A DNA stretch of 64,000 bases from Chiloscyllium plagiosum. Its lineage: Eukaryota. Location of the stretch: contig NC_057753.1 in the NCBI RefSeq assembly GCF_004010195.1, positions 7,188,130 to 7,252,129 on the forward strand, given 5' to 3'. The notes beneath the pieces were generated by a model. It searched no databases. It had not been told where the DNA came from and worked only from the letters and a program-made list of their open reading frames with translations. Made by a program: the position numbers and the translations under genes. Below, one piece after another: positions 2,869 to 58,800 of this stretch (within the stretch, counting starts at the first letter, position 1; each line of letters opens with the position of its first letter).

Positions 2869-2938
2869 ATGGGGAAAACATGGATTTGGCTCATGAAAGA
2901 AATATGTTATCCGATTCTAGCAGTTATTTGCATTCCAG
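2869..2938 (+). CDS. GPR139-like class A GPCR, copy 1, coding exon 1 (MGKTWIWLMKEICYPILAVICIP, phase 1)
   Basis: ATG at 2869; 70 nt ending CCAG|GTAAAT donor. The same 70-nt exon is present in all three copies and splices in frame (G+CG=Ala) to exon 2, completing TM1 (YPILAVICIPANSMTILIL). Confidence 0.88.
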
Positions 2939-3199
2939 GTAAATCTTCCTAGTCTGTTTGTTTTTGAATCAGTGTTTTTCTTTCATGCTAATGCCCTATT
3001 CTGTAAAGATCCATTTGCCAATGCCAAAACAGTGTTATCACAACAAAATCAACAACGATTAGTGGGCATTTTCCTACTTCCTCAAAATATTACTGGTGTA
3101 ACAATAGTGTAATATAACTAACGTCTGCAATTTTGTTTTTCCTTAATCCTTGCACTGTCAGATTATAGTGGATAGAATACCGACAGTACTGCAATACGA

Positions 3200-3510
3200 A
3201 ACGGTCAGTAGCTCGTGGTTCGAACTGCTGCCTCACAGCACAACGGACCTGAGCACGATTCCATTTCGTTCCACAGTCTGGATATAGCTGGTTCTGGTTG
3301 CCTCCCACAGTGGAAAACTATGCGTGTTACGTGGATTGGCAGTGATAAATTGCCCATTGTGTGCTGGATGTTTAAATTAGGTGCATAAGCGTTCGATAAT
3401 CCACGGGAAACCTGATGAGACTCATGGGTCTTGATGGGCTGCTCTTTGGAGTGTCAGTGTGCAGTTGTTGGACTGAATGGCCTGTATTCACCTGTAATGA
3501 TGCTATGAAT
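3200..3510 (+). mobile_element. Degenerate HE1-like tRNA-derived SINE in the intron (homologues ~32975-33310 +, ~58160-58460 -)
   Basis: GTGGTT..ACTGCTGCCTCACAGC head, GTGGATTGGC..AAATTGCCC core, TTGTTGGACTGAATGGCCTGT tail. Confidence 0.65.
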
Positions 3511-3939
3511 TACATGGCTTGTGTTCAAATGTTGGCAGTAAGTATCTTCACATGCATTTCAATCATTCATTGATACATTGATATAAATGTGTGTTGATGC
3601 AATAGTGATCTATTTGCTGGATTATTAATGCAGAGACTCAGATGATGTTCTGGACTGTTGCGTACGAATTCCGACACAGTCAGCCTTGCGTTTTGAATTT
3701 CTGAACAATATAGAAATAATGCAATGCTGGCACACACATATATAAGCCTAAATGGTGAATTTGCGGTCGCAGAATTGTATCTGTAGATACATTGTACTCT
3801 GTTAAAAAAGTACGTAACGTGCAGACAATCATTTTTTTAAAAACAATCCATGGAACATTTTATGAATTCCTACTTTGTAATAGAGCCATTCTGACACAAG
3901 GTTTGAATACTTATGGACTCTAACCTCGCACTGCAAATG

Positions 3940-4295
3940 TATTGCCCGAACTGAGATGTCATTGTTTATACGAACACCTTATGTTAACTCGGGAATGTGA
4001 CTTGTAAAAAGTTCTGAGGTTTACATTATAATGAATCGAAAACTGCAAACCTTTCTCAAATATGAAAGACTTAACACCAATCTAGGTTTGTTCAGTATGA
4101 CTCATCAGTGTATGACATTTTGATCTTTTGTGATAAATTCTACGTCCAATGATCGTACTCCATGATGTTCATGATGAAGGAGCAGGGTTTCGAAGGCTTG
4201 TACTTTCAAATAAACCTGTTGTAACAAAGCCGGTGTCGTGTAATTTAAGACAAAAATCATCCACCACAGTCGAACACTGAGATCTCCGCATCATA
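3940..4295 (+). mobile_element. Old Penelope-like terminal fragment with a decayed hammerhead-type motif (homologues ~33760-34100 +, ~57234-57590 -)
   Basis: TGATGAAGGAGCAGGGTTTCGAAGGCTTG...AAATAAACCTGTTG resembles the CTGATGA-stem-GAAA terminal motif of the younger Penelope-like elements here; family assignment is by recognition only. Confidence 0.45.
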
Positions 4296-4520
4296 ATCCA
4301 ATGACGACAAGATATCCATCGCTGATTATTGAGAAAACCATAGTGAGGTAACTAACGTCCGTTATGAAAGTTAAGTACCATCCCCACCTCTTCAGGCCGA
4401 TGCATAACATTATATTTTTCTCGTAATTTAGCTTTGGAGAATGAGACATGTGCAATGAGTGCCAGCTGAGCGCGTGACACCGTCATCCAATGAATGATTT
4501 CTTTTTTCAAAATACTGACC

Positions 4521-5507
4521 ACTTACTAGCGGCGTACCGCAAGGGTCGGTGTTGGATCCACTGCTATCCACTGCTTTCTAAATGACCTGGATGAGGGCTT
4601 AGGAGGATGGTTTAGTAAATTTACGGACGACACGAAGGTAGGTGGAGTTGTGGGTAGTGACGAAGGATGTAGGTTACAGAGAGACATAGATAAGATGTCG
4701 AGCTGGGCTAAGAGACGGCAAATGGAGTTTAATGTGGACAAGGGTGATGTGATACACTTTGGACGGAGTAATCGGAATGCAAAGTACTCAGCTAATGGTA
4801 AGATTTTTGGGAGTGCAGATGAGCAGGGAGATCTCGGTGTCCAGGTACACAGATCCTTCAAAGATGCCACCGAGATTGACAGGGTTGTTAAGAAGGCATA
4901 CTGTGTTTTGGCCTTTATAAATCGAGGGATTGAGTTCCGGAACCAGGAGGCTATGCTGCAGCTCTGGCACGGCCACACTTAGAGTATTGTGTACAGTTCT
5001 GGTCACCACATTATAAGATGGATGTGGAAGCTTTGAAAAGGTTACAGAGGACATTTAATCGGATATTGCCTGGTGTGGAAGGAATGTCTTTGAGGAAAGT
5101 CTGATGTCCTTGAGGCTGTTCTCATTCGAGAGAAGAAGGTTGAGAGGTGACTTAATAGAGACATAGAAGATATTCAGAGGGTTAGGTAGGGTGGACAGGG
5201 AGAGCTCTTTTCCAAGTATGGGAACAGCAAACACGAGGGGACAAAACTTTAAAGTGAGAGGAGACAGATGTCAGAGGTAGTTTCTTTACGCAGAGAGTAG
5301 TAAGGGCATCGAATGCTTTGCCTGCAACGGTAGTAGATACGCCAAGTTTAACTGCACTAAAGTCGTCATTGGACAGGCATATGGATTTACAGGGAATAGT
5401 GGAGGTGGGATGGGCTTCAGATTAGTATGACATGGTGGCGCCACATCGAGTGCCAAAGGGCCTGTACTGCGCGTTAATGTACGATGTTCTATGTTCTATA
5501 TGTTCTA
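4521..5507 (+). mobile_element. 5'-truncated CR1/HER1-like LINE in the intron of copy 1
   Basis: RT C-terminal peptides (KFTDDTKVGG, QMEFNVDK, HFGRSN, VKKAYCVLAFINRGIE) and a (GTTCTAT)n tail; absent from copy 2; flanked by TGACC/TCACC. Confidence 0.9.
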
Positions 5508-5531
5508 TCACCTTCTCATTCTCTCTTTCAG

Positions 5532-9349: not shown

Positions 9350-9849
9350 NNNNNNNNNNNNNNNNNNNNNNNNNNNNNNNNNNNNNNNNNNNNNNNNNNN
9401 NNNNNNNNNNNNNNNNNNNNNNNNNNNNNNNNNNNNNNNNNNNNNNNNNNNNNNNNNNNNNNNNNNNNNNNNNNNNNNNNNNNNNNNNNNNNNNNNNNNN
9501 NNNNNNNNNNNNNNNNNNNNNNNNNNNNNNNNNNNNNNNNNNNNNNNNNNNNNNNNNNNNNNNNNNNNNNNNNNNNNNNNNNNNNNNNNNNNNNNNNNNN
9601 NNNNNNNNNNNNNNNNNNNNNNNNNNNNNNNNNNNNNNNNNNNNNNNNNNNNNNNNNNNNNNNNNNNNNNNNNNNNNNNNNNNNNNNNNNNNNNNNNNNN
9701 NNNNNNNNNNNNNNNNNNNNNNNNNNNNNNNNNNNNNNNNNNNNNNNNNNNNNNNNNNNNNNNNNNNNNNNNNNNNNNNNNNNNNNNNNNNNNNNNNNNN
9801 NNNNNNNNNNNNNNNNNNNNNNNNNNNNNNNNNNNNNNNNNNNNNNNNN
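9350..9849. other. Assembly gap (500 N)
   Basis: Run of N. Confidence 1.
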
Positions 9850-10622: not shown

Positions 10623-10624
10623 AC

Positions 10625-12820: not shown

Positions 12821-15760
12821 CCATTCTTTCCCTCACAGATTTTGATACCTCCTGCTGAGTTCCAACAGTGATTTGAGTTATTGTTTCAATACTATTTACA
12901 ACCAGTTCCTTCGCATGAACCTGGTTACATGTCTTTCCCAGTCTGTGAGTTCATGGAAACCAAACTTCGGCCATCATAGCTATTCTTCTCAACTGGATGA
13001 GAAAAGTCAGGTTTCATGAGTCAATTCTGCTGTTGCACCTTTCCAAAGAAAAGAGAAATATCATAATTTTTAAAATATGCTAAGAAATTGCAGATTACAT
13101 GAAATGTACGTCATCTGTAGTGTTGAACATTGCCTTATTAGTTTTACCAAACAGTAATCATTTCCATCGACCTATTGCTGTTGTATGGACATTTTGTTTC
13201 AGCACGACTGTGCAGTTCAAATTATACAAGGAGTCATTAAGTAGATTACTGACATTTTATCAAGCTTGTGCCATTTGCTTACATTCAGACTGGTCCTGAA
13301 AGCCGGTTCTGAACTTTTGCCACTGACGTGTTTAATTTGCAAATCCATAATTCGCGAATTAGTCATTTTCCCATCGTGTAATGTTAAACGTTCCCCACAA
13401 TGCCAAACTTAGGCCTGTGCATTCATAATATGGCAAACTGCAAGAACAGAACGGGCACACTTCTGATCAATTGTAACATACTTCTGCAATTCTATGATGC
13501 ACATGAATTGCTCCAGCAAAGAACACATTGTACGCTCGATATAAAGCATTTAGCTCATGACTTTGATCAAGGTTGCATAGCTGTGTCCTTTGTTCATTGT
13601 CATACAAAATAATAGTCCACCATTGCCAAGTCTGTTTGACCCCTCAAACGAAGACTCATAAGACTTCAGTCTTGCCTTGCTGCTTTACATGAATCCAGAC
13701 CAGGATTGTTGTCAAGGATTAACCAGGCTTCATTGCATTGGAGAGAGATCATTTGCAAAGGGCCCCTACAGCACAATAACTCTGCGACAGACTCTGGTAG
13801 TAGTCAAGAGGATTGGGCACAGTCATTCAGACACTCAAGAAAATGTTTGGACCCAACTGCTGTATGTCCAATGGAGTTGGATTAAAGGCCAAACTTTGGT
13901 GCCAATGTCTACTTATCTATGAACCAAGGGGCTATGTCATCTATCGCCGAAGTCAGTCATGACTCTAAAAACACTAAAAATCTCTCATCCATCTAAACTG
14001 CATTGAATAAACGAATATTCAAAACAAGGTCTCCTCGACGACAGTTCTGCTGGCTCTCGTGACAGCCTTGTGAACCTCCACTTCACGTCCACTCTGGCAA
14101 GTGCACTCTAAGCGAGTGAGAACAAAACCATTCTCTAAGCGTGGTCTCAAAGAGTCCCTTTAAAACTGCAGTTTCGTTTAAAGATTACAGCCAGGCCTAA
14201 AACAAACAATGCTAAATTGAAACTTTCCCTTTCATGGTTTATAGCAACAGCAATTGAAGGTATGAACAGATGAACTCCTGAGACTTCACGTTTTGTTTAA
14301 CAGAAGTGGGAAAAAATGTAAGCATTCCACTCTTGACCTCTCCGTCAAACACAGCCCTATTAAAGTCATGTAATAACTGAAAATACCTTGATTGATTTAT
14401 CTCGTTTTTAAAAAAAAAACTGCGTAATTGAGTCATATAGCATGGAAACAGATCCTAACATCCAATTACTGCAGTCGGCAATGTTCTGAATTAATTTTCG
14501 CCTGCTGCACAAACGCTGTCTGAACTGTTTTGTGATTTCAGCATTTGCAACTTTCGGATACTTGCCTCAACACTCCAATATATTCCAACAATCAGCGATT
14601 AATGTATCCAAAGCATGAAAATGAAATAGTTGATCATAACGTTCTGGTCTCTAATGAGAGAGAGATGACTGGTGGAGGCTTTACCCTGAGATTCAGAACA
14701 CCTCAGACGTGGAGAGAGGTTAGGAAGGAGAGTCATTCATGCTGACTTAATCTGCTCTGTTGCTGTCAAAGTGCATTTCAAACATAGCTTCGAACAAACT
14801 GAAATACTCGACTCTATCCCAAAAGTCAGTTTGTGAAGACATGTACAAGGAGAGTGCACTAAATGATTGAAACCTACAGGAAAGTAAATAATTTTTTAAA
14901 TGATTCATTTAGGCAAACATAATGACGTTCTATAAAAACTACTGAAAGTGCTTCTGGCCAGCAGGAACATTTTATGAGCAGAAGATTTCTTTTCTCTGGA
15001 GCAAATGCCACAAATCCTGCTTCTGCCAAGATATCACAGTTGTAGGTAGCCACTCGGTGGTGCCGCTGTAATCTGGAACTAACAACAGAAAATATTCAGT
15101 TTGTGCGTGCATTTGTCTATTTACAGTCATCACAATATCACAACATTTCGCAAAAGGCCGTCCTCTTTGTTTAAAATAGTGCCCGATTAAAATGATTCGC
15201 GATTCACGAGATATCACGAGAGAATCAAAGACTTGAATTTCAGAGATATGAGAGTGTGTTGCTGGACAATCGCAGGACTCCTGAAGAAGGGCTCCGGCCC
15301 GAGAAGTTGATTGTTCTGCTCCTCGGATGCTGCCTGACCTGCCGTGCGTTTTCCAGCAACACATCTCAACTCTAATCTCAGTATCTGTAGACCTCACTGT
15401 CTCCCTGACTTTCACTGAACATCATTCACCAAAATCACTCCAAGGAGCCAACCCTCAGATGAGACCGAAATTGCTGTACAATGCAGATGTCTCTCAGAAA
15501 GTCAGAAAAAAAATCGAGAGAAGACCTGAAGAATGTGGTGAAATCTCTATAGAGACAAATCTGAAGACTTGGTAAAAATGTGGACCAAAATACATGTTTT
15601 ATCAAAACACTCCTTGATGATGAATCTTCGATTTCCTACTGGATATTTGATGTGAATGACTTTATGTTATTAATGTTTCCTTTCAATTTGTACAGATAGC
15701 CTATCCTTTTAAAGGTAACGTTTTCAGCCTCAGGAGTCAAAGCTTAAAAAATGTAATGGG

Positions 15761-16725: not shown

Positions 16726-16779
16726 AAGAGAAACATTGAATATAAGAACATGTTTAGAAGAAGGATTGTCATTAGTGAA

Positions 16780-23225: not shown

Positions 23226-23256
<31 letters not shown>

Positions 23257-41870: not shown

Positions 41871-42356
41871 AAAATACCTTGCAAGAACCGCACTAAATAC
41901 CACATTGTACAAACAGGCAGAAAACCATCCGTGAGGATACATGAACATCAATTTGCCACTGAACGAAATGAACCACATACACTTGCCGACGGGCACCGCT
42001 TCGTCTGGGACAACATCACCAAAAAACACAGTGACTAGGATCCCACTTTCCAGCCCTTGAGAAAAAAGAGCAAGGAATGACGCAACTATGGGAAATGACA
42101 TCACCACAGAAAATAATGTCACCACAGGAAATGGCATAATCACACGTAATGACGTCACTAACCGGCATTGGGTGGGTTCGAACCCGAAATTCAGCACTCT
42201 AAATCAGAGTGCAACATAAAACTAACCACAATGGGATCTGTGTTAAAAGGAAATGGAAATTTAAAATTTGAGACCTGTCAACAAGTCTCATTTTAACTCC
42301 TTTATGCTCTTCGCTCCACCTGACAAGTGTTTAACTTGCAAAGTTCAGATACCTCT

Positions 42357-45100
42357 TGTGATGAATCTGCCCCTTTTACAAGGTTATTCTGTGTGAGTTC
42401 CTTTTTTATTCCAGAGTGTGCATAAACATAGAGGTTCCAAAATGTCTTGATATATTTGCTTGAAAAATCATTCAACTTTTATTTAAACACTGGTGCAATG
42501 AGAACGGAGTGGCCAGTTCTCAAAGTTCAGGGCACAGATTAGTTTGGTTTTGGCAAGCCGTTTTTTTTTAATGCACTGTTCATGCTTTAGGTTGGAACGC
42601 CAAAAAGCTGCTGCGGACGAAGTGAAGCACTTTCATACCGATTCCTTCTCCTTCTCACATCTCTCCTTCAAGAACCTGAGTTTGAAATTCCCTTTTGGCC
42701 AAATCGAGTTTGTGGGACGTTTCAGGAATTTGGAAGAGCATCATTAAGTTGCAAAAGAGTCGATTGAGTTTCCAAATAGTTATGCGATTCTAAGTTTTAT
42801 ATTATTTTGTTCGTGCGTAAATACATGCTGCTTTGTTTAAACTGAGTGTTTGAGCTAGTTGCATCAGTCCTGGAATATCCATTACACAACCGCTTAAAAA
42901 AAAACAGGAATGTTTGGAACTGAGCCAACATATTGAACAGTTGTGAGGGGATCTGGCTGCTTCATGAAGACTGGGGTGACGCAGCTGGATTTGTTTTAAG
43001 ATTTTGATTTGTTATAAGGGTTGTAGGACTCGAATTTGGCGATTGGTCGCTTTTAGTGTCTGCTGGGCTGGGCGTTGAACTTGTTTGTTTTAAGCAGTGC
43101 TAGACGTAGTTATGCCTTTTCCGTCACCAAGAACTTTCTGGGAGTGGAAAAACTGACTTTGTGATTTTCCAAAAGGCGATCAAGGAAAAGCTGCTGGAAT
43201 TGGGAGTCAAGCTGGAGATGAATCTGCCTCCTTCCATGAGGCAAGAAAAGGTAACTAAAAGAATCAGTCAGCATGTGAATTTTCTGGAAACGCCAGCAGA
43301 AGCTTTAGATTTAGCAAAACATTCAGTTGGACATGAAGCAGCTTGAGATAGATGCAAAAGAAATGGAAAGGGAAAAAGACTTGAAACTGTATGAATTTCG
43401 ATTAAGAGCCGAGTTAAGAGAAAAAGAACGAAATGTCCTTGCAGAATAAAAAGCAAGGTACCGGTAGGAAAGGAAATAAAGAGAAAGAAAGCTTGATCTT
43501 CATAAATTAACACTTAGAAAGGAAAGTCAGCTTAAAAGGACAGTCATGAAGGTTGAAGGTAAACTAAATGAGGAAGAGAGGTGGATGAGCAAATATATGG
43601 CCGCCAAAGGCCTGTTGGGAATTTATTCAAATGTATTCAATCATGGACGATATTCGATTAGAAGGATTAGAAGCCTTTTTCAATCTCATTTTACAAGGTA
43701 GCTAAACAAATGAAGAGGCCAGTGACCATGTGGGTTTTGCTGATCCAAACTAAACTTGTCGGTTGAGCTCGTAAGTTTTTTGCATCACTTTCAAAGTAGG
43801 TATTTGCGGCGTATGAGGAGGTGAAGATAGACATTTTAAGTGCGAATTAGGTTTTGCCAGAAACCTACAGACAGCGTTTAAATAACCTCCGGAGGGTCTA
43901 TAGTCAAACCTACATTGAGATTTAAGAGAATAAATGATGCTATTTTGACAGATGGATATGGGCTTTAAAGGTACAGCAAAACCATGTCGCTTTTAGAGAT
44001 AAGATTATTTTGTTGAAGTTCAATAAATATCACTTCTCGAAATATGGGAAATCATGCGGAAGAGCTGAAAGTTAAAAGGGTAAGATTCGCTGAAGAAAAG
44101 ACGAGTTGGTTGAATAAATAAACTTCGCTTCCAACATCGATTTCATTCCGGTAGTAACTGAAATAGGGCAAAAGGAAAATCCAATGTAGCAACAGAAAGG
44201 TAGATCTCGGTGAAGATCACAAAGATAACTTACCACAGGCTGAAAGGGAAAGCCGTGAAGGGGAAATGGAAGTTAAAAATCTCCAGTGCTTTCACTGCAA
44301 TTTAGTAGGCCACTTGAAAGTACAGTGTTGATCTGTGATAAAAAGTATTGGGAAGACAGAAGGTGGAGAGTCGGACAAGCCAGTTAATTCTGTTACTTTT
44401 TGAACCGATAGCAGTGTGGGATCTAAAACGCTGCAGAAGAATGCACAACCTAGTCAGAGTCTAATTAAGGAGAAATTGCCAGGTCATTACGAAGGTAAAC
44501 TTCACTCTCCAATGTCAGCGCAGCAGTTAAAGAGTTTATAATAGGAAGAATACAGGATCCGGTCCATTTTTGATGTTGGACGATGACGGGATATGTACCT
44601 TTGAAGGACTGTTGACAGAAAAAAAAAAATGCAAGTAACGGATTTCACGGTGAGACAAGAAATGCTCAGTTAGAGTGAGGTTAGAGTGCCCAATAAAGAG
44701 TAGAGAAGTTGTGGTAGGAGTTCTGAACAAGCTCTCAGCTCCAGGAATACAGTTGTCCTTGCTGACGATGCAGCTGCATCACAGTCAGGAGTTCTGCCGA
44801 ATTTGGTTGAAAAGCCAATGAAAACTCTGCTGCTGAACTTTTGCAGGATACATATGTTTTTGTTTTTGTTTTACTGTGTGAAAATGACGTCATAAGGTCA
44901 ACGTTTGAAAGAAAAGTGATCAAAGAAGACAGATAAGAACCTTAAAATGGAATTACGTGAGTTATTACTTGATCAAATGCTTGAGACAAAACAGATGCAA
45001 ATGAATGGCAAAGTAGAAATCCTTCGTTCAGAGAAATTAACTGAGTAGCAGCAGGAGGATGAGAAGGTAAACGAATTACCGGAGAGGTCATACACAAACA
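42357..45100 (+). mobile_element. Second Gmr1-like Gypsy relic, longer copy (candidate LTR 42357-42970, gag, zinc knuckle, protease)
   Basis: KEKLLELGVKLEMNLP gag N-terminus, KVAKQMKRPVTMWVLLIQTKLVG, QCFHCNLVGHLKVQC near 44284-44328, NTGSG protease-like site near 44547. Confidence 0.75.
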
Positions 45101-46203
45101 CAGGTTGCAGTAAGTGTGTGGTTGAAGGGTTTTCGGGCCAGTTTGATTACAGCTAATAGATACTGCTTCAGCCCAGAGACTTTCAAGAGTAAGGGGATAA
45201 AAAAACTTCCACAATGGAAATGGAGTGGCAAGTTCTCCCACTGCAACTTTTATCTGGTTTTGGCAGTCAGGTTATTCGCTGAAAGTAGCCTAGGCAGTTC
45301 AGACGTTGCTGGACCCAAAGCAGCAGTTCCATGCTGGTCACCTCTCCCTGAACTCTCTCCTCTAAGACACTGTGTTTGAAAATTATTTTTGGTTCCAAGG
45401 GTGTTTCATTTGGATTTTTGCAAGCGTTTGGAACAGCATTGTTCAGTTGGGCTTCTCTATTGTGTTATCGGACAGCTTAAGTTCTTCGGTAGTCTAATCG
45501 CTTTATTTATGTTCCATTTCCATATGGCTCAGAACTTTGCTGTTTTTCCTGCGTGTGTCCAAATGTCTTTTAAATTTTGTAAGCGTACATGCACCAAAAA
45601 CTTCTTGAGGCCGTTCATTCCATATACAAGCTACCCTCTGTATGAAAGAATTGCCACTCAGATCTATTTTAACTTTTCTGTTCTTACTTTACAATATGAC
45701 ATCTGGTTTTGAAGTGCGCTATCCGATGGAAAAGACCTTTGCTGCTCTTTAGTTCTTTGCCCACAAGTCTTATAAACTATTATAAGTTCACCCCTCAATG
45801 CCCTGTGCTCCAGTGAACAGATCTATCATTTCTTTATACCTCATACTGTCTAGTCGTAGCAGCATGCTTTTAAATCTTAACTGTAGCATCTTCAAGTTAA
45901 TGCTATCATACCAGTTCCAGGGCGACCAGAGCTGTACACAACCCTAAAGAAAAGTAGCTTCCCCATTGTCATGTTCAGTCTCAAAATGACGTCTCAATTC
46001 ATACCTACAACGGTATAAACAATGAAGCCGAGTGTGTTAAATGCCTTCTTCACAACTCTGCCTACCTGTGATGTAATTTTCAACGAAATATGAACCAGAA
46101 ACTCTCGATCTCGATCTCTGTTCCACAATACGATGAAAAGCCTGGACATTAACTGGGTCAATCCTGCCTTTCCTTCTGTTGCCAAAATGAACGCAATCGC
46201 AGT

Positions 46204-46492
46204 GGGCGGCACTTTGGCTCAGCGCCAGAGACCCGGATTCAATTCCCGCCTCAGGCGACTGACTGTGTGGAGTTTGCACATTCTCCCATGTCTGTGTGGG
46301 TTTTCTCCGAGTGCTCCGGTTTCCACCCACAGTCCAAAGATGTGCAGGTCAGGTGAACTGGCCATGCTAAATTGTCCGTAGAATTATGTAAGGGGTAAAT
46401 GTAGGGATATGGGTGGTTTGTGCTTCGGCAGGTCGGTGTGGACTTGTTGGGGCGAAGGGCCTGTTTCCACACTGTAAAGTAATCTAATCTGA
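46204..46492 (+). mobile_element. HE1-like tRNA-derived SINE (head partly deleted)
   Basis: Near-colinear with 28940-29237; inserted into the decayed CR1 and absent from the homologue near 20895. Confidence 0.85.
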
Positions 46493-48379
46493 TCTTTATC
46501 TAAATTAAACTCCACCTGCCACCCCTCAGCTAACTGACCTAATTGATCAGGTTTTCTTTGAATTCTTAGATAATCTTCTTCACTGTCGAATATACAAACA
46601 GTTTTGGTGTCATTCCCCATGACTAACCATGACTCCTAAATTCGCACCCCAATCGTTTTTACAAACGACAAGCATCAGTTGAATCCCCCCATCCCCACAC
46701 CTGATGACAGGCCACCAATCTGAATAAATAAGTGTCGCTTGGCCCACTCTGTTTCCTACAGTCAAACCACCGTTCCAATCAATTGTCAAGCCCTCCCTGA
46801 TTTCGATATCACCTCAATTTGCGAAATAGCCTAACAATGCGCAACCTAGTCAACGGCTTAACCAAAGCCCATATGCAGAACGCCTATCGCCCTGCCTGCA
46901 TATAACTTTCGGTTCATCCTGTCAACAAGTCAATTAAATTCCTGAGACAAGATTTTCCGTGAATATTGCCTATATTGCCTATCCCTAATTCTTCATTGCT
47001 TCTCGAAATGCATGCCAATCCGTCTCTCAGAATCCCGTGGCGCAAATTATTCATGCAATTTTATGATCTTTGTCACCTCCACCGTTTTTATATGCAGGGT
47101 TTTTGTTTAAATTGTTTTTGAAAGAGAGAAATCTCTTCGTTTACTGCAAATAAACTACTAATAGCGTACATGAGGCAACAGATAAATTGTTGACTCCAGT
47201 TCAATATCCATCGTGACCCCTGTGTGATTCGTAATTCTCCCCATTTTGAATCCAATGCTAAAATGTAGCAAAGATAATCACTGTCAAGATGGCTCTGAAA
47301 TGAAATAGTATTTTGCGCAGTAGATTTTATGAGAATTCTGTTTACATTTTAGTTGACACCAACACCCAGCAATCATAATTACGTTCATCATCCTCTCAAA
47401 ATCTCCCCCATTCCATTCAAAGCAAAATTAATTTTTAATGGTGCCGTCAATTATTTTCAAAGACGTAAATACGAGAAAGCTAACATTTCAGTAAGTGCAT
47501 CCAACATCAGAGTGAGCTGCCAATTTCAAATCATACTTGGTACATTCTGAATTTTTCAAGACAGTCTTCCACGTTTCAGAAATGAAAATTCAACTGATTC
47601 AATTAATTTATTGTGACAACGCATGCCTAAGTACAGGAAAATAATTTGTTTGTGAGGCATACAGGAAGGGTAAAGTAAGCCAAGACATGCAGAGCATAAG
47701 CTTCATAGTGAGGAAAATAGATAACATCAAATGTATATTTAAATGAGTGGAATATGTATAATCAATGCTATGATGAGGTCCGATGTAGATCACTCACAGG
47801 GAGTCGCTCGGTGTCGGCGTGTGCTATTCTTTGTGTCTGTTGTGTAAGGGTCGATAATCCGCTGCATCTATCCTTTCTCTGAAGCAAAACCCAAACAACA
47901 CATTTATATGTTCAACAAGTCCTGCAGCATTTGAAGTACAAGGTGCGCCACAATTTCAGTTTTAGGCAGTGAGACAAACATGCTCTCATTGAGCCAAACA
48001 TGAGATATTCGGACTTAGAGCAGACAATATTGTTTTCATGAATGAGAGTAAAGTAAGCTGCAATGGTTTTCTCACCATGTAACTGTGAAGTGCAACCATG
48101 GATTTCAGTACAAGAGCATGAACGAAGATATTTAGTACATGATTGAGGATGACGGTTTTCATTCAGAGAATGGTGAGCCTGATGTTTTACTGCTGCAGAG
48201 AATGGATGAGACCTAAAAAGTAAATGTTTCAAAAACGTAGCTTTGCATATTCCTGAAGGCTCCAGGATACAAATGGTAGAAGGAGCAAGCGGATAAAGGT
48301 TAATGAGATTTATGGTCAGCAATAAACATTTTGAATATGGAGCAGACGTGATGGTCTGAAGGTACTGTAAACACAGAAA

Positions 48380-50560
48380 AGACAGTATAGAACAGTGCAG
48401 CAGAGTACAGGTCATTCGACCCTCGATGTTGAGCCGAGCTTTCATCCGACTCTACAGTCAAACTGATTGGCATACTCTTCATTTTACTATCATACATGTT
48501 CCTGTACAAGAGTCGCTTCAATATTCGAAATGCATCTGACTCCATGACCACCGCTGACAGTTTATTCCATGGACCCACCACTTTCTGTGTAAAATGAACC
48601 TACCTCTGACGTCTCGCCAAAAACCTTTCTCCAATCAATATAAGATTATGCACACTCGTGATATCTATTTCTGGCCTGGGAGAAACTGTTGGACTCCCCA
48701 GTTTGTTTATGCCTCTCATCATCTCGTGCACCTCCTTTTAGCCATTTCTCATCTTCTTCACTCCAATGAGAAAGACCCTCGCTCCCTAACCTACATTCAG
48801 CAGACATGCTCTGCATCTAGGCAGCATTTTAGTAAATCTGCTCTTCACCTTCTCTAAAGCTTCAATATCCTTCTTATCATGTGGCGACCAGAACTGAACA
48901 GAATATTCTAGGTGTTACATAATTAGGGTTACATGGAGCTGCAGCATAACTTCGTGGCTCTTAAACTCAGTCCCCTGCTAATGAAATACACCAAAATATT
49001 CGCCCTTTTATGAACACTATCAACTTGATTGTGAACTTTGAGGGATCCGTGTTCATGAATCACAAAATCACTCTGTTCCCCAACACTGTCAAAACCTGCC
49101 TTCAAACCTGTAAGCTGCATTCAAATTATAACTTGCAAAACGAATCACTTCTCTCTTTTTCAGGTTGAATTAAGTATTCCACTAATCTGACGGGTTCTTC
49201 ATCCTTTCAATGTCCCGTTGTTAAAATACAACAGGCCTCCACATTATCCACAACTCAACCAACTTTCTTTTTACAGGAAAACTAATCAACACTTCCTGTT
49301 CCTGATCCCAGTCACTAATGAAAATCACAAAGAGGTGAGGTACCAGAACTAATAGAATTGTAATTCCTCCTCATCCAATTAAATACTTTCCCATAATGTC
49401 TGCTTCTCTCCCTCACCATGCCATTAATAATGATCAAGAAGTTGTGATCACTATCACCGAAATTCTCACCAACTGAGAGATCTGCCACCTGATTCGTTGC
49501 TAAGCACCAAATCTAAAATGACCTCCCCCTTGTCGGCCCATCTCCACACTGAGTGAGGAACCCTTCACAGACACACCTGACAGAATTTGTTCCATCCAAT
49601 TTATTTTCCCTAAAGATGTGCCAACCAATATTAAGGAAGTTGATGTCACCCATTATAACAACCCTTTTACTTTTGCACCTTTCCAAAATCTGCCATCTAA
49701 TCTGCTGCTCCATGTCTCTGTTGGTATTGGAGATCTGTGGAAACCACCCAACAAATTGAGTTTCTCTTTCCTGTTTCTGAATTTCACCGATACTAACTCA
49801 ATAAACAAACTCTCGTCGACGGCCTCCCTTTCTGCAGTTGTGATACTACCTCTGATTAGCAATTACTCTCCACCACCTCTTTTACCTCCCTCCCCATTAC
49901 TTTTGAAACAAGTAATGTGCAGAACCTCGGAGAACCATTCATACCCCTATGCTCTAAGTTCCTCATTCATATTCCAAACTCTTTTGTGTTAAAATAGACA
50001 CACTTCAATCAAACACACGGACTGCAACGTTGGCCTATCAAGTGTTTATCCTCCCAGGTAGACTCTGCTCTCGCTGTATCTGCCTGTTCACCAGCTGCCT
50101 CCAACCTCTCATCTTTTGTTCGGTTCCCATCTCCCTGCCAAATTAGTTCAAACCTTCCTGAAGAGCTATTGCAAGCTTCCCGGCGAAGATACTGGTGCCC
50201 CTCCGGTTCAGGTGCAACACATTATTCTTGGTAAGGTCCCACCTTCCCCAGAATTTATCGCGATGATGCACATATCTGACGCCCTGCCTCCTACACCAGC
50301 TCTGCAGCCACGTGTTCAGCTTCATACGCACTCTTTTCCTTGCCTCACGCCCGTGGTATATGTAGCAATCCGGACAGCACTACCCTGCTTGTCCTACCTT
50401 TTAGCTTCTAAATTAACTGTCTGTATTTACTTTTCACGTCCACATTCCTTTCTATCTATGTCGTTCTCTCCGATGTGTACCACGACATCTGGCTGCTCAC
50501 CTTTTCCCTGAAGAGTCCTGTGAACACGATCCGAGACATTCCTGACCTTGGCACTGAGGG
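48380..50560 (-). mobile_element. Old CR1-like LINE, paralogue of 16780-19000
   Basis: LNTWLQSWCRRQGVRY..VLHLNRRGTSIFAGK (ORF 50143-50331) and VVIMGDINFLNIGW (ORF 49513-49713). Confidence 0.75.
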
Positions 50561-51105
50561 GTCAATAAACTTTTGGGGAGTATTATTCGTTGTTGACAAT
50601 GCTTCTTCTTTCCGTGCTCTTATATTGAATGTTTCTATGAAAGCACGATTCATTAATGAAATTACCACGGAGTGTTTAGGCATCATGCCTGTATTGCGCT
50701 ATCAACTAATTAAAAAATACTGCCTGTATCATTTGGTCAATAAACTACGCTTTATTCAGTACTGCATAATAACCAGGATAGCAAGAAATAACCTTTTTTT
50801 CGAAGTTTAGCTTCTTAGAACTTGCGTAGCATCAGGTTTCAAAGTCATTTTGCGGAATAACCATGTCCCATATTCACGTAAATGTTTTGCAGTACATCCA
50901 CGTTTGATACAGTAAAAGCTTTGATTGTTTTTGTTATGACATTAAACTGGTGCATTTCATTTTAGCATGTGGAATGAATTGCATTAATTATTAATCAGAT
51001 TTATTCCTGAAAACCATTGTTTTTTTAAGCTTTGACTCCTGAGGCTGAAAATGTTACCTTGAAAATAATATGTTATATGTACAATGTAAAATGAAATATT
51101 AATTG

Positions 51106-53124
51106 CAAAAGTGTCAAAAAATGAAACAAGCGGGCTAAAAGGGGTCATGAAATAGCTTTACCAACCAGGATTAATGAAAATCACAAAGCTTTTTTATTCT
51201 TATATCAGAAGCAAGCGGGTAACTACAAAAGTGTCAAAAAATGAAACAAGCGGGCTAAAAGGGGTCATGAAATAGCTTTACCAAGCAGAATTGATCAAAT
51301 CACAAAGCATTTTTATTCTTATATCAGAAGCAAGCGGGTAACTAAGGAAAGGATTGGTCCACTAAAATATAATGAAGGAAGGCTGCGTGCCGCACCTGAG
51401 ACAATGTGTGAGATTCTGAATGATTACTTTGCATAACTGTTCAATGAACTTGATGAATCTTGATATTAGAGATAAAAGTTGGATTAGTCTCGATCACGTT
51501 GGCATAAATAGGGTAGTTTTTTCGGTTAATCGAGTTTTTTTTCAGGTGCCTAAATCGCCAGTCCTGAAAAGGATCTATCCCACGTTGCTGAGGCAGGCGA
51601 AGGAAGACATAGCTGGGGTCCTGACATATATTTTTATAGCATCCTTAAACACCAGTGCGGTGCTGATGGACTGGAAGATTGTTCATGTTGTCCCCCTGTA
51701 CAAGAAGTGTAGTAGTCATATTCCCGGTAACTGCACATCAGTGAACCTGACGTCCTTGTTGGGACGTTGCTGGTGAGCGTACTGAGAGATAGGATGCATT
51801 TATATTTGGAAAGGAATGAGATTATCAGTGATGGTCAACATAGCTTTGTGTAGGGAAGATCGTGCCCTACGAACTTGATAGATTTTTTCGAGGAAGTGAC
51901 CAAGTTGTTAGATGAAAGAAGGGATGTTGATGTCATATACATGGACTTTAGTAAGGCGTTTGATAAGGTTCACCATTGTAGACTAATGAAAAAGGCGAAA
52001 TCACATGGCCTGCAGGGTATTCTAGCTAGGAGGATAAAGATCTGGTTGAGCAACAGGAGACGGAGAGTCGTAGTTGAAGAGAGTTTCTCGAAATGAAGAA
52101 AGGTGACAAGTGGTGTTCCACAGGGATCAGTATTGGGGCCACTGTTGTGTATAATATACGTAATGATCGAGTAGAGGGCACTGTTGGTATGATCAGCAAG
52201 TTTGCAGACGACACAAAGATTGGTGGTGTAGCAGAAAACATTAGGGACTGTCAGAGAATACAGGAGAGTATAGATAGACTGGAGAGTTGGGCAGAAAAGT
52301 GGCAAATGGCTTTCAATCCAGCCGAATGTGAAGTGATGCATTTAGGCAAGTCTAATTCCGTAGCGAATTATACAATGAATAAAATAATCTTGGGAAAAGT
52401 TATTGGGCAGAGCGATCTGGCAGTGCAGGTCCATTGTACCCTGAAGGTTTCTGCACAGGTGGATAGAGTGATCAAGCAGTCATATAGTATGCTTGCCTTC
52501 ATTGGACGAGCTATTGAGCATAACAGCTGGCAAGTCATGTTAAAATTGTACAAGACATTGGTTCGGCTGCATTTAGAATACTACGTACAGTTCTGGTCAC
52601 CAAAATTACCAAAAGGATGTGGGCGCTTTGGAGAGGGTACAGAGAAAGTTTATGAGGATGTTGCCTGGTATGGACGGTACGAGCTATGAAGAGAGTTTGA
52701 GTAGGTTAGGTTTATCTTCACTCGAAGAAAGGAGATTGAGGGGGGACCTGATTGAGGTTTACAAAATCATGAAGGGTATACACAGGGTGGATAGAGATAA
52801 GCTTTTTTCCCAGGGTGAAGAATTCAATAACGAGAGGTCTCGCTTTCAAGCTGAGAGGTGGAAAGTTTAAGGGGGATACACGCAGCAAGTGCATCACACA
52901 GAGGGTGGTGGGCGTTTGGAACAGCAGAGGTGGTAGAGGCAGGCACGGCAGATTCATTTAATATGCATCTTGACAGATGATTCAGTAGGTGGGGAGCAGA
53001 GAAATACAAATGCTTAGGAAGTGACCGACAAGTTATGACAATACATTTGGAACGTCTCAGGTTTGGCGGTCCAAAGCGTCTGTTCCTGGGCTGTAAAATC
53101 TCTTTGTTCTTTTTACTTTGTTCT
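51106..53124 (+). mobile_element. CR1-like LINE ORF2 fragment (paralogue of 7545-9349) with a 120-nt tandem duplication at its 5' end
   Basis: ORFs 51875-52096, 52093-52689 and 52619-52870 carry CR1 RT motifs; the insertion is absent at the homologous site (~15662) of the gene-less cassette. Confidence 0.9.
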
Positions 53125-54262
53125 AAAGTCACCCACAGCAAATATCCAATAGAAATTCAAAAGAATGTGCACGCAAAACACAACGTGCAATCTTTTCTTT
53201 TAGGTTTTCAGTAAGTAAGGATGACAGTAAAAGAGGTGAAACTAAGATTAATTATCAAGGAGTCTTTTGATAAAATATGTATTTTCGTCCGCATTTTTAT
53301 CAAGTCTTCAGATTTGTCTCTACAGAGATTTCACCATATTCTCCAGCTCTTTTCTCAACTTTTTTTCCTGTGTTTCTGACTGACTACTTGCAGTCTACAA
53401 GAATTTCGGTCTCATCTGAGTGTTGGCTCGTCAGAGTGGTTTTTCTCAATGACGCTCTGAAATTCAGGAAGGCAGTGAGGTCTGCAGAGGCTGAGATCAG
53501 AGTTGAGAATGTGTTGCTGGAATAGCACAGCAGGTCAGGCGGCATCCCAGGAGCATAAAAATCGACGTTTCGGGCCAGAGCACATCATCAGTGTTCACAA
53601 TCCTCGGATGCTGCCTGACCTTCAGTGCTTTTTCCAGCAACACACTCTTAGCTCTGTGAAAGTCAAATTTTTGACTCTCTGTACAGAATAAGAACTAGGA
53701 AGTTGTCTCCAAAGTGCAGATCTATTCTATCCACTCACATTGCCAAAAAAATCTTCATGGTTCAGCGTAGTGAATCATTTCAAACAAACACAAATATTAA
53801 CACAAACACACAAAAAAACAAATCTCTCACGCAAACACACACACAAACACACACACATTGCTAGAATTGTCAAACAAGACAGCAATCTCGGATTGTTCCC
53901 AGTCCAAACTTAAAAGCAGAAGTGCCAAATTGCCTCCTGATATGTGCTCAGATTCCTTTGATATTAATTCATAGGTGAGACATCACTTCCGACTTCATTA
54001 TACTTTTTAGAAATATTTATTCACAATTTGTAATTTGTCCCCTTTGAATGAATTTGCTATTTGTAACATCACAAAAAAGTATAAAGAACAGAAAAATATT
54101 CAGAATAAATTGTCCCACAGCAAAACTAAGTAATGTAAGTTAACAACTTTTTTTAAATGTACATTAACAGAGTCGAAGAAAAACCTATTGTTTTAGAAAT
54201 AAATGAGATGAAAACTCAGCTACGTTGTTGTACTTTGAAAATAAGGACTCTGTTTATACATT

Positions 54263-54792
54263 TTAACATATGCTGAGGGTTTGTTTCCATATAGGTTTCA
54301 TCATATTCAGCAGCGATTCCCTGAATTTGTTCTGTGTTGCTGCAAGAGGTGAAGCTAAGAAAGTTGCTCTTGTTCTACAGCCCCACTGGACATTTTGAAC
54401 GATCTTCTCAGGCTCATATGCAAACAAAACCGGAATATTCTTGAAGAGGATCAGGGCTGAGACGATTATTAATAATGTGATTGCGGTTCTTTTTGTGCAA
54501 TACTTTCTTTTAAACTCCTGACAGCAGATCATCACAAATCTGTCAAATGTGAAGGATACGGTGAACCAAACAGTTAGATCGAGAGATATGGCACTCATGT
54601 ATACAATGAATAAGCATACAGGTGTGTGAGACAAGAAGGAAAATGGAAAATAATAGTTCAAAATGCGATACACGACAATATTAATGATAATGGCCAATAG
54701 ATCTGAAGTTGCCATAGCCACCATGTAAACCGAGATACACTTGGAAAGACCACAATCGCCTCTCAAGAGAATCAAAATTGTCATCGAATTCG
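54263..54792 (-). pseudogene. GPR139-like GPCR, copy 3, exon 2 with in-frame 369-nt deletion of TM5-TM7 (spliced product 199 aa; pseudogene or truncated receptor)
   Basis: Intact CTTACAG acceptor; exon is 530 nt versus 899 nt in copies 1 and 2. The translation jumps from FLASPL to AATQNKFR, losing 123 codons, with no stop or frameshift. Confidence 0.85.
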
Positions 54793-54816
54793 CTGTAAGA
54801 GAGAATGAGAAGGTCA

Positions 54817-55818
54817 TATAACATATAGAACATAGAACATAGTACATTAAAGCGCAGTCCAGGCCCTTTGGCCCTCGATGTTGCGCCGCCCTGTCATACT
54901 AATCTGAAGCCCTTCCCACCTACACTATTCCATGTCAATCCATATTCCTTGTCCAATGACTACTTAAATGTACTTAAACTTGGCGTATCTACTACCGTTG
55001 CAGGTGAAGCATTCGTTGCCCTTATGACTCTATGAGTAAAGAAACTACCTCTGACATCTGTCTCATCTCACTTTAAAGTTTTGTCCCCTCGTGTTTGCCG
55101 TTCCCATACTTGGAAAAAGGCTCTCCCTGTCCACCCTATCTAACCCTCTGAATATCTTGTATGTCTCTATTAAGTCACCTTTCAACTTTCTTCTCTCTAA
55201 CGAGAACAGCCTCAAGGCCCTCAGCCTTTCCTCAAAAGACATTCCTTCCACACCATGCAACATCCTATTAAATATCCTCTGCACCTTTTCAAAGCTTCCA
55301 AATCCTTTTTATAATGTGGTGACCAGAATTGTACACAATACTCAAAGTGTGGCCGTGCCAGAGCTTTGTACAGCTGCAGCTTAGCCTCCTGGTTCTGGAA
55401 CTTAATCCCTCGATTTATAAAGGCCAAAACACAGTATGCCTTCTTAACAACCCTGTCAATCTCGGTGGCAACGTTCAAGGATCTGTGTACCTTGACACCG
55501 AGATCTCCCTGCTCATCTGCACTCCCAAGAATCTTACCATTAGCCGAGTAGTTTGCATTCCGATTACTCCGTCCAAAGTGTATCACCTCACCATTGTCCA
55601 CATTAAACTCCATTTGCCACCTCGCAGCCCAGCTCCGCATCTTATCTATGTCTCTCTGTAACCTACTACATCCTTCGTCACTGTCCACAAATCCACCAAT
55701 CTTAGTGTCATCCGCAAATTTACTTAACCATCCATCTAAGCCCTCATCCAGGTCTTTTATAAAAATGTGGAACAGCAGTGGATCCTACACCGACCCTTGC
55801 GGTAAACCGCTAGTAAGT
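54817..55818 (-). mobile_element. Same CR1/HER1-like insertion in the intron of copy 3
   Basis: ORFs 55221-55688 and 55063-55284 encode CR1 RT/C-terminal peptides (EYCVQFWSPHYKKD, LERRKLKGDLIETYKI); TGACC on both sides. Confidence 0.9.
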
Positions 55819-56148
55819 GGTCAGTATTTTTTTAAAAAATCATTCATTGGATGACGGTGTCATGGGCTCAGCTGGCACTCATTGCACATGTCTCATTCTC
55901 CAAAGCTAAATTACGATACAAATATAATATTATTCATCGGCCTGAAGAGGTACGGTGCTCCCGCGAGGAGGTTGAGCAATTCATCAACTTCACCAACACA
56001 TTCCACCCTGACCTTAAATTTACCTGGACGCTAAATTACGATACAAATATAATATTATTCATCGGCCTGAAGAGGTACGGATGGTATTTAACTTTCATAA
56101 CGAACGTTAGTTACCTCAGTAAGGTTTTCTCAATAATTAGCGATGGAT

Positions 56149-57233
56149 GCACCACTCCCCACCTCTTCCTCCGCGACATTGATGACTGCATTGGCGCCAC
56201 CTCGTGCTCCCGCGAGGAGGTTGAGCAATTCATCAACTTCACCAACACATTCCACCCTGACCTTAAATTTAGGTGGACCATCTGTGACACCTCCCTCCCC
56301 TTCCTGGACCTCTCCATCTCCATCAGTGACGACCGACTTGACACTGACATTTTCTTCAAACCCACCGACTCCCACAGCTACCTGGATTACACCTCTTTCC
56401 ACCCTACCTCTTGCAAAAATGCCATCCCGTATTCCGAATTCCTCCGCCTCCGCTCAAACAGTTAAGGAGGTAAAATTCTGATGAAGGGCTTTTGCCCGAA
56501 ACGTCGATTTTGCCTGTCCTCGGATGCTGCCTGAATTGCTGTGCTCTTCCAGCACCACTGATCCAGAATCTGGTTTCCAGCATCTGCAGTCATTGTTTTT
56601 ACCTCGTTGATTTTAACCCTACTGCGAATCCTCTTGCAAGGATGCCTGCCTTGAAGACGTTTTCCTCCTCTCTCTACAAGAATCTCAGGGAGTCTCTCTC
56701 TCATTGCAACTCCCAGGTCATTTCCTCTCTCCATGCTTCAGGCTCTCTGCCTTTATTCCTGATGGAGGGCTTTTGCCCGAAACGTCGATTTTGCCCGTCC
56801 TCGGATGGTGCCTGAACTGCTGTGCTGTTCCAGCACCACTGATCCAGAATCTGGTTTCCAGCATCTGCAGTCATTGTTTTTACCTCGTTGATTTTAACCC
56901 TACTGCGAATCCTCTTGCAAGGATGCCTGCCTTGAAGAAGTTTTCCTCCTCTCTCTACAAGAATCTCAGGGAGTCTCTCTCTCATTGCAACTCCCAGGTC
57001 ATTTCCTCAGCCCTGAAGCTCTTCCCTGACCGATCACCTTCATCTCCTTCCCCACTGACATATTGTACTCTATGCTACTCTATCCCCACCCCCACCCTCC
57101 TCTAGCTTATCTATCCACGCTTCAGGCTCTCTGCCTTTATTTCTGATGAAGGGCTTTTGCCCGAAACGTCGATTTTGCCTGTCCTCGGATGCTGCCTGAA
57201 TTGCTGTGCTCTTCCAGCACCACTGATCCAGAA
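56149..57233 (+). mobile_element. Young Penelope-like element fragment (RT plus tandem terminal repeats) in the intron of copy 3
   Basis: LFLRDIDDCIG..FINFTNTFHPDLKF..SLPFLDL..FFKPTDSHSYLDY.S.HP..CKNAIPYS is a Penelope-type RT/thumb; three repeats start at 56478, 56759 and 57143; absent from copy 1. Confidence 0.85.
56472..56511 (+). ncRNA. Minimal hammerhead ribozyme motif (further copies with cores at 56759-56786 and 57143-57170)
   Basis: AAAAUU-CUGAUGA-A-GGGC(UUUU)GCCC-GAA-ACGU-C-GAUUUU; predicted cleavage after C56505. Confidence 0.6.
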
Positions 57234-57863
57234 TATGATGCGGAGGTATCAGTGTTCGACTGTGGTGGATGATTTTTGTCTTAAATTACACGACATCAGC
57301 TTTGTTACAACAGGTTTATTTGAAAGTACAAGCCTTCGAAACCCTGCTCCTTCATCATATACATTATGGAGTAGGATCATTGGACGTAGAATTTATCACA
57401 AAAGATCAAAATGTCATACACTGATGAGTCATACTGAACAAACCTAGATTGGTGTTAAGTCTTTCATATTTGAGAAAGGTTTGCAGTTTTCGATTCATTA
57501 TAATGTAAACCTCAGAACTTTTTACAAGTCACATTCCCGAGTTAACTTTAGGTGTTCGTATAAACAATGACATCTCAGTTCGGGCAATACATTTGCAGTG
57601 TGAGGTTAGAGTCCATAAGTATTCAAACGTTGTGTCAGAATTGCACTATTCCAAAGTAGTAATTCATAATATGTTCCATGGATTATTTTTTAAAAATGAT
57701 TGTCTACACATTACGTACTTTTTGAACAGAGTACAATGTATCGACAGATACAATTCTGCGGCCGCAAATTCACCCTGTAGGCTTATATTATGTGTGTGCT
57801 AGCATTGCATTATTTCTATATTGTTCAGAAATTCATAACGCAAGGCTGACTGTGTTGGAATTC

Positions 57864-58123
57864 GTACGCAACAGTCCAGAACATCACCTGAGTCTCTGTA
57901 TTAATAATCCAGCAAATATATCACTATTGCATCACCACACCTCAGATTTATATCAATGTATCATGCATGATTGAAATGCATGTGAAGATACTTACGTACG
58001 CAACAGTCCAGAACATCATCTGAGTCCCTGCATTAATAATCCAGCAAATATATCACTATTGCATCAACACACATTTATATCAATGTATCAATGCATGATT
58101 GAAATGCATGTGAAGATACTTAC
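57864..58123. repeat. ~130-nt tandem duplication in the intron of copy 3
   Basis: 57864-57995 repeated at 57996-58123; single in copy 1 (~3538-3665). Confidence 0.9.
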
Positions 58124-58730
58124 TGCCAACATTTTAACACAAGCCTTGTAATTCATAGCATCATTACAGGGGAATACAGGCCATTCAGTCCAACAACTGC
58201 ACACTGACATTCCAAAGAGCAGCCCATCAAGACCCATGAGTCTCATCAGGTTTCCCAGGGATTATCGAAGGCATATGCACCTAATTTAAACATCCTGCAC
58301 ACAATGGGCAACTTATCACTGCCAATCCACGTAACACGCACAGTTTTCCACTGTGGGAGGCAACCAGCACCAGCTATATCCAGACTGTGGAACGAAATGG
58401 AATCGTGCTCAGGTCCGTTGTGCTGTGATGCAGCAGTTCGTACCACGAGCTACTGACCCTTTCGTATGGCAGTACTGTCGGTATTCTATCCACAATAGTT
58501 TGACAGTGTAAGGATTAAGGAAAAACAAAATTGCAGACGTCAGTTATATTACATTATTATTACACCAGGAATATTTTGAGAAAGTGGGAAGATTGGAAAA
58601 TGCCCACAAATCATTGTTGATTTTGTTGTGATAACACTGTTTTGGCATTGGCAGAAAGATCTTTCCACAATAAGGCATTAGCATGAAAGGAAAACAATGA
58701 CTCAAAAACAAACAGACTAGGAAGATTTAC

Positions 58731-58800
58731 CTGGAATGCAAATAACTGCTAGAATCGGATAACATATTTCTTTCATGAGCAAAATCCATGGTTTCCCCAT
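58731..58800 (-). CDS. GPR139-like GPCR, copy 3, coding exon 1 (MGKPWILLMKEICYPILAVICIP)
   Basis: Minus-strand ATG at 58800, 70 nt, intact CCAG|GTAAAT donor. Confidence 0.8.

Follow-up and report, generated by a model that had tools for sequence, protein, structure and literature searches.

The stretch of the Chiloscyllium plagiosum genome analysed here (64,000 nucleotides; hereafter the window) carries three readable genes, A, B and C, for G-protein-coupled receptors (GPCRs), which lie in repeated cassettes and almost certainly belong to an array within a receptor family that has expanded in cartilaginous fishes. This GPCR repertoire is apparently large, old and undescribed, and carries only an automatic RefSeq name. 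Judging from how its predicted ligand pocket has changed, we propose, with a probability of about 0.8, that the family is a ligand-diversified repertoire; our leading and tentative proposal for its function is chemosensation. The mechanics of the array are those of ordinary birth and death, the window is one ordinary stretch, and the interest lies in the family.

A and B are class A (rhodopsin-like) GPCR genes. Gene A, on the forward strand, has a 70-nt first exon (2869-2938) encoding a very short N-terminus and the start of transmembrane helix 1 (TM1), a phase-1 GT-AG intron (2939..5531) and a second exon (5532-6430) running from the end of TM1 to the stop codon; annotated shark homologues begin at the same Met. 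Gene B, also on the forward strand, consists of exon 1 at 32617-32686, followed by a phase-1 GT-AG intron, and exon 2 at 34579-35477. Both encode intact receptors of 322 amino acids, and the two proteins are 86% identical. In gene C, on the reverse strand (exon 1, 58800-58731, again with a phase-1 GT-AG intron; exon 2, 54792-54263), an in-frame deletion of 369 nt removes residues 174-296, approximately TM5-TM7, leaving only TM1-TM4 in a 199-residue product; the junction lies near 54343 and has 3 nt of microhomology relative to the state in B. The Pfam 7tm_1 profile scores 65.9, 62.9 and 32.2 bits for A, B and C, respectively (curated cut-off 30.5; E 5e-18 for gene A). A and B carry N1.50, D2.50, C3.25, the D-R3.50 pair, P5.50, W6.48 and NPxxY, with T instead of P at 6.50. 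The predicted structure of the gene A product has seven long helices plus helix 8, and all 49 listed Foldseek matches to it are class A GPCRs, the entries for GPR139 being ranked 11th and 34th, although the mean pLDDT of 60 is too low for ranking receptors by structure. A tblastn search of the window with the three proteins found neither a fourth copy nor a gene remnant, the next matches having E>=0.24.

The family to which these genes belong extends far beyond the window. A search with gene A exon 2 returned 1,077 of 2,756 candidates, counted as clusters, at E<=1e-10. The listing covers the best 120 of the 1,077: every one belongs to one of 10 shark species, and nearly all bear the automatic name ‘probable G-protein coupled receptor 139’. 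The closest listed match is from C. plagiosum itself (91%), and a hand count of the 120, which are clusters at 90% identity and hence give lower bounds, came to 30 for Pristiophorus, 28 for Heterodontus and 26 for Heptranchias. Among these best matches, 17 from Heterodontus apparently lie on one contig, as do 10 of 10 from S. canicula, as members of gene clusters would. A wider search yielded 90 representatives (50% identity) at E<=1e-30; when 30 of the 150 listed were looked up, 17 of the 18 scoring above 143 bits came from sharks, rays, skates and the chimaera Callorhinchus. More distant are an amphibian/sturgeon gene found once per species (20 amphibian clusters and one sturgeon cluster; 25 matches among 1,675 candidates) and a conserved sister gene, clade I, present in sharks, teleosts, coelacanth, amphibians and reptiles (145 matches, 120 listed).

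Phylogenetic analysis agrees with this picture. In an IQ-TREE run on 53 sequences chosen from about 430 fetched, the chondrichthyan family and the amphibian/sturgeon gene form one clade (support 100/100) and clade I another (100/100), and the window genes group with a C. plagiosum ‘probable GPR139’ protein (100/100) inside a carpet-shark subclade (100/100). Monophyly of the chondrichthyan members relative to the amphibian gene was recovered in a FastTree analysis of 115 sequences (0.93) but not in the 53-sequence IQ-TREE run. The preliminary description of this DNA had proposed a lineage-expanded receptor repertoire without a known ligand and had named membership of a low-copy conserved clade as the outcome that would speak against it; the 1,077 matches and the 100/100 clade bear the proposal out, and the tree places the genes in the expanded clade. 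The lineage concerned is, however, that of all cartilaginous fishes rather than of one species. The family would have been low-copy in early jawed vertebrates and would then have radiated in cartilaginous fishes. Of the Pfam families, 7tm_1 alone matches all 52 of the 52 family members tested; the olfactory, V1R and TAS2R families had no match at E<=0.01 in these 52, which places the family outside OR, TAAR, V1R/ORA and T2R receptors. Lamprey and coelacanth share a third vertebrate lineage of GPR139-related orphans, with amphioxus relatives beyond it. Two clade-I members, from zebra shark and tree frog, carry the name ‘transmembrane protein 183A isoform’, which suggests that the clade-I gene is located within or next to TMEM183A in these two species; this adjacency would provide a synteny handle for naming clade I.

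How these receptors relate to GPR139 bears on their likely ligands. GPR139 is the nearest solved receptor for every profile tried (E 6e-17 for the shark family, 3e-26 for clade I and 6e-17 for the amphibian clade), and for the shark family the next receptor follows at 1e-12. A chemokine-receptor reading, which came from a single-sequence search with gene A, was set aside because GPR139 is ahead in the profile search. Human GPR139 and GPR142 are class A orphans that respond to Trp and Phe. They share with the shark family a ‘G.PAN’ start of TM1, W3.41, N at 5.58, an acidic residue at 7.36 and W6.48, and, with A and B, N7.39. They also share the two-exon structure with a phase-1 intron in TM1. 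Unlike GPR139, the shark family has an invariant C3.25 and second-extracellular-loop (ECL2) cysteine, and T rather than P at 6.50. The Trp/Phe responses of GPR139 depend on F109, H187, W241 and N271, and R244 was modelled as a contact (Nohr et al. 2017, PMC5430874); A and B retain W6.48 and N7.39 and have A/T at 3.33 (F109), Y for H187 and Y for R244 (6.51). Moreover, whereas gene A reaches 22.8 bits with GPR139, its scores with relatives from salamander and coelacanth are 121 and 110 bits, and the orthogroup table of a gut atlas gives the bamboo shark a single GPR139 and a single GPR142 in a separate orthogroup, with <=3 genes per species (PMC13689627). On these scores and because sharks have their own GPR139 and GPR142, A and B are best classified by sequence as GPR139-related orphans and not as GPR139 orthologues. 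The label ‘GPR139-like’ given earlier therefore holds in the sense of nearest solved receptor, but not in the sense of orthology, and part of the amino-acid pocket of GPR139 is missing. Our trees contain no GPR139 sequence (0 of 391 fetched proteins fit its motifs).

Low-copy lineages near GPR139 have been reported before. Rinne et al. 2019 (PMC6504862) gave the name GPR210A/B to orphan receptors close to GPR139/142 that fishes and coelacanth, but not mammals, carry in low copy number, and ‘Orphan 139-like’ and ‘NMOGPR’ appear in a table of Furlong and Seong 2017 (PMC5207463). Our trees likewise give three such low-copy vertebrate lineages. In contrast to the family described here, no expansion is described for GPR210A/B, and the word ‘shark’ is absent from the main text of PMC6504862.

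Evidence for ligand diversification comes from 22 standard class A pocket positions, which were fixed beforehand and numbered by motif anchors. The sample comprised 111 of 120 shark proteins (nine were dropped for length), 62 clade-I proteins and 23 amphibian/sturgeon proteins, with mean identities of 62%, 59% and 73%, respectively. The ratio of pocket entropy to that of other TM positions is 1.70 in the shark family, 0.70 in clade I and 0.15 in the amphibian/sturgeon gene. Tree-aware rates in the shark family are about 1.9-fold higher in the pocket than in the rest of the TM region (1.42 vs 0.75, p=2e-5) and also exceed those of outer non-pocket positions (1.04, p=0.021), and the low-copy relatives have the reverse pattern (0.36 vs 0.54; 0.19 vs 0.53). 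Within the window, the five consecutive pocket-lining codons 3.29-3.33 differ between A and B, each by one non-synonymous change (p about 0.011 for such a run anywhere). Signalling and structural positions are nearly fixed in the 111 shark proteins: R3.50, N5.58, R6.30 and C3.25 in 100% and Y7.53 in 99%. The combination of a fixed G-protein face with a diversifying pocket makes it most likely that the family works as a repertoire.

The amphibian/sturgeon relative provides a natural point of reference for this change. Amphibian proteins have F3.33 in 100%, with W6.48, N7.39 and a basic residue at 6.51, whereas in the shark family 3.33 is T/A/V and 6.51 is A/T/S. We infer from these sequence differences that a low-copy GPR139-like sensor may have been multiplied and retuned. 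The amphibian/sturgeon gene itself has a near-invariant pocket (F3.33, W6.48, K6.51, N7.39) and N rather than D at 2.50, and is, by its sequence, a candidate for an uncharacterised amino-acid or peptide receptor. As a low-copy relative with a GPR139-like pocket it could serve as the ancestral reference for the transition from sensor to repertoire, and may also aid the ligand question for human GPR139/142.

What such a repertoire would sense is less certain. Our leading proposal is that numerous receptors, differing in the external molecules to which they respond, would converge on a shared signalling path in peripheral sensor cells, be these olfactory, gustatory or the chemosensory cells of skin or gut, with amino-acid derivatives or short peptides as the likeliest ligands by descent. 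A chemosensory role, suggested by sequence pattern, falls a little short of even odds; it leads because the size of the repertoire and the pocket pattern fit, because the known shark set is small, and because the same deep receptor group gave rise to invertebrate expansions. Invertebrate srw/srx and similar families are chemoreceptors. The nematode srw/srx expansions belong to the same deep FMRFamide/sex-peptide receptor group (PMC8514136); the shark expansion differs in being independent and in a vertebrate lineage, and the Srx matches in 7 of 52 family members (best E 2e-5), like the Srw/Srx matches in 10-50% of the members of Atlas look-alike clusters, are weak and serve as leads only. The family resembles OR, TAAR, V1R/ORA, T2R, FPR and MRGPR receptors in its tandem clusters, pseudogenes, species-specific subclades and variable pocket with a fixed G-protein face, and differs from them in belonging to another class A branch and in having two coding exons. 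It is thus a clustered multigene family with birth and death, as chemosensory families are, and its hypervariable pocket and conserved intracellular face are those of a chemosensory family, a combination that immune sensor families would also show.

A bolder version of the chemosensory proposal, which we regard as rather doubtful, is that the family is a further vertebrate chemoreceptor family and supplies the main chemosensory repertoire that cartilaginous fishes have seemed to lack, built from a GPR139-related amino-acid/peptide sensor. It would then rival or exceed the known shark OR, TAAR, V1R and V2R sets, with individual cells of the nose, taste buds or skin expressing a single receptor type. 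Although sharks are famed for chemical sensing, few chemoreceptors are known from them: for catshark, 65 genes only have been reported (PMC6368271), and 34 V2Rs (PMC10116579). The ‘probable GPR139’ family would be a testable answer to this discrepancy.

Several observations weigh against the repertoire and its proposed sensory function. First, the pocket analysis sets paralogues beside orthologues, so relaxed constraint may be partly responsible for the rate difference, and its numbering depends on motif anchors, the folded model being of low confidence. Second, a sample of 13.0 million reads, about 2% of one single-cell run of unspecified tissue, included 756 that fell on repeats but none that fell on the exons or the 3' flank. 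Third, no GPCR is among the 50 genes listed as most abundant and specific for catshark ‘brain and olfactory epithelium’ (PMC11979771), although that list likewise lacks known V2Rs and is therefore weak as counter-evidence. Finally, nearly all catshark olfactory neurons are described as Go/TRPC2 microvillous cells (PMC10116579), which fits V2R dominance.

The same features would suit a sentinel repertoire of the immune system or body barriers, in which receptors on granulocytes, mast-like cells or nociceptive endings sense microbial or damage peptides and metabolites, a role equivalent to that of the mammalian FPR and MRGPR arrays. We consider this unlikely, if still deserving of serious weight. 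A fast pocket and birth-and-death turnover would be equally expected there, the signs of gene conversion in exon 2 described below (Fisher p=0.002) fit, and the reported absence of MAS1 and its relatives from cartilaginous fishes (PMC8455134) leaves such a role open. By contrast, four supplementary files of a bamboo-shark immune atlas (PMC11372145) contain no ‘GPR139’ or ‘receptor 139’ string, a weak point given that LOC-only naming is possible, and the chemokine-receptor matches of gene A rank behind GPR139 with the profile. Alternatively, the receptors could serve co-diversifying endogenous peptides or pheromones in neuroendocrine or reproductive signalling, which we judge quite improbable. 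The pocket is conserved in such receptors, as it is in both low-copy relatives here, the N-terminus of the shark proteins is very short, and we know of no matching peptide expansion. On the other side of the balance, the C3.25 and ECL2 cysteines, which are missing from GPR139, are retained in the family, POMC peptides also activate GPR139 (PMC5430874), and GPR139/142 share an origin with the protostome MIP/sex-peptide, FMRFamide, proctolin and myosuppressin receptors (PMC8514136).

Our search of the open literature, to which it was confined, found no description of the chondrichthyan expansion. ‘GPR139’ is absent from the text of PMC13113109, and the family was not found in the supplements of PMC13188829 (8 files), PMC11372145 (4) or PMC8455134 (files 1-12 of 24). 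According to one review, cartilaginous fishes have a ‘paucity’ of GPCRs (PMC8455134).

The window itself records how the array has turned over. Blocks of self-homology of at least 300 bp cover 86% of its non-N sequence, far above chance. The one complete cassette unit (38082..61668, reverse strand) comprises an upstream block, gene C, a downstream block and a spacer with LINE and long-terminal-repeat (LTR) retroelement remnants; it measures 23,586 bp, and a unit with a deletion measures 15,182 bp. The cassette length of ~25-30 kb given in the preliminary description instead reflects the ATG-to-ATG distances of 29,748 and 26,183 bp, which span gaps and a deleted unit. A gene-less cassette on the forward strand (14565..15700) has its upstream block fused directly to its downstream block at 15214/15216, a jump from position 661 of A to position ~7000, with a loss of ~6.3 kb that includes the promoter and both exons. 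A fifth cassette is represented by the start of its upstream block (38081->37031, reverse strand), a sister of the gene-less copy from which it is 7.4% apart. It enters a 500-N gap (36531..37030) at which the orientation switches and which is the candidate location of a fifth gene. Because this cassette reads on beyond the gene-less breakpoint, it is not a carrier of that deletion, and with an ATG expected ~1.8 kb inside the gap it is possible that the gap holds a fifth gene. The window has three N gaps, of 500, 500 and 193 bases. The other 500-N gap (9350..9849) occupies the place of ~8.6 kb absent from the unit, so the gaps are placeholders across which order and orientation are not established, and the inversion of the right half shows only across a 500-N gap. 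The birth-and-death array proposed earlier is thus borne out by intact, truncated and gene-less cassettes in repeated units; of the individual gene states, two intact, one truncated in frame and one absent stand, and the cassette at the gap is seen only as an upstream block.

In the block common to five cassettes, divergence falls into tiers of 19-22% (B versus the rest), 14-15% and 5.5-7.4% (A/C and gene-less/gap), and these tiers, with their paired youngest copies, suggest that two cassettes were duplicated together as a block at a late stage. We propose that the 23.6-kb unit was multiplied in tandem by unequal crossing-over, a process suggested by the head-to-tail layout, in at least three rounds (19-22%, 14-15% and 5-10% divergence); the last round would have copied a two-cassette block, and losses would have occurred through internal deletion. 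It is also conceivable, if very improbable, that the youngest duplication (A with C, gene-less with gap copy) is two divergent haplotypes set side by side by the assembly. The two arms are collinear and joined only across a 500-N gap. Moreover, in comparison contigs from two other animals (of the same species or a close relative), the gene C base occurs at 32 of 39 sites where the contigs differ from A (39 of the 40 shown, a selected list from 327 found), and the share of gene A words reaches at most 0.41 in any run. Against this stand the 5-10% separation of the arms, far above the usual allelic distance, a 1.3-kb insertion, and one run with near-A pieces (3 differences versus 17 between A and C; 2 versus 19) as well as near-C pieces. 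Uncollapsed haplotypes, a concern raised at the outset, are thus excluded for the 14-15% and 19-22% tiers and unlikely for the A/C pair; since the two older tiers hold either way, three cassette lineages remain. The contigs of the other animals are mosaics of near-A and near-C pieces, and their summed depth, which gives no copy number, is 140-590 over exon 2 versus 27-80 in the unique 3' flank; the higher exon 2 depth hints at further close paralogues.

Selection on the genes can be gauged from codon changes. dN/dS is 0.45 for A/B, 0.48 for A/C and 0.40 for B/C, and the A/B value indicates purifying selection on the intact copies. The A/B synonymous distance (0.14) is smaller than the flank distance (0.20-0.27), and B-specific changes are fewer in exon 2 than in the flanks (21:21 vs 837:308; Fisher p=0.002), which together suggest gene conversion. 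On the gene C branch, the retained part has four synonymous and two non-synonymous changes, so the deletion looks recent; it is not among the 15 listed of 53 joints in the other animals' contigs. A largely neutral account, in which redundant copies in a recombination-prone region amplify, drift and decay and pocket changes reflect relaxed constraint, would accommodate the two broken cassettes among the four readable ones, the fairly high dN/dS of 0.40-0.48 and the mosaics of A-like and C-like pieces in other animals. We nevertheless give it little credence: signalling motifs are near-invariant in 111 proteins while the pocket outpaces outer non-pocket sites, and the family is old, being found in sharks, batoids and chimaera. 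In a separate attempt to obtain family DNA for codon tests, a metagenome scan reduced 597 pattern matches to two loci of 22-26% identity, which were too distant and were not used.

Non-coding features of the genes vary among copies. A TATA-like box (2796..2801, forward strand), predicted from sequence ~70 nt upstream of the gene A ATG, is conserved in C and has a single change in B. A/B identity is 0.89 at the promoter and exon 1 versus 0.74-0.87 in upstream 200-column windows, and in the A/B window comparison no upstream element outside exon 1 and the TATA region is clearly conserved. Olfactory-type homeodomain and O/E-like motifs are not conserved upstream of all three copies and are not claimed. 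The gene A intron contains a LINE fragment (~4520-5480), which we take to be of CR1 type, ending ~50 bp before the splice acceptor; it is common to C and absent from B, and contigs from other animals include a state without it (joint 4471->5520). An insertion unique to the gene C intron (55952..57230), presumably Penelope-like, includes a 281-bp tandem repeat and has no Pfam match. The same intron has a tandem duplication of 132 bp (57863-58123); 5 bp in its second copy are missing from A but present in the other animals' contigs, and may mark an unequal crossover within the gene.

The remaining features are repeats and retroelement remnants. The spacer block (9850-14565, 22190-29747 and 38082-43118) contains a decayed LTR-retroelement remnant, which we assume to be Gypsy/Gmr1, copied with the cassette. 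Within it, an Integrase_H2C2 match lies at 39789-39968 (E 8e-7), and gag-like and protease-like fragments near 23170-23769 and 40259-40684 have no Pfam match. An Rfam scan of the window gave 0 matches. Three segments (25403-27086, 44201-46622 and 15629-16728) have no counterpart in other cassettes; those read contain SINE and LINE pieces and no long open reading frame. LINE reverse-transcriptase fragments occur at 16186-16659 and 55221-55784 (RVT_1 E 3e-17 and 0.0095), one of them being the fragment found in the A and C introns, and two-copy tandem repeats at 51106-51344 (120 bp, 95%) and 56478-57008 (281 bp, 97%) are recent local duplications.

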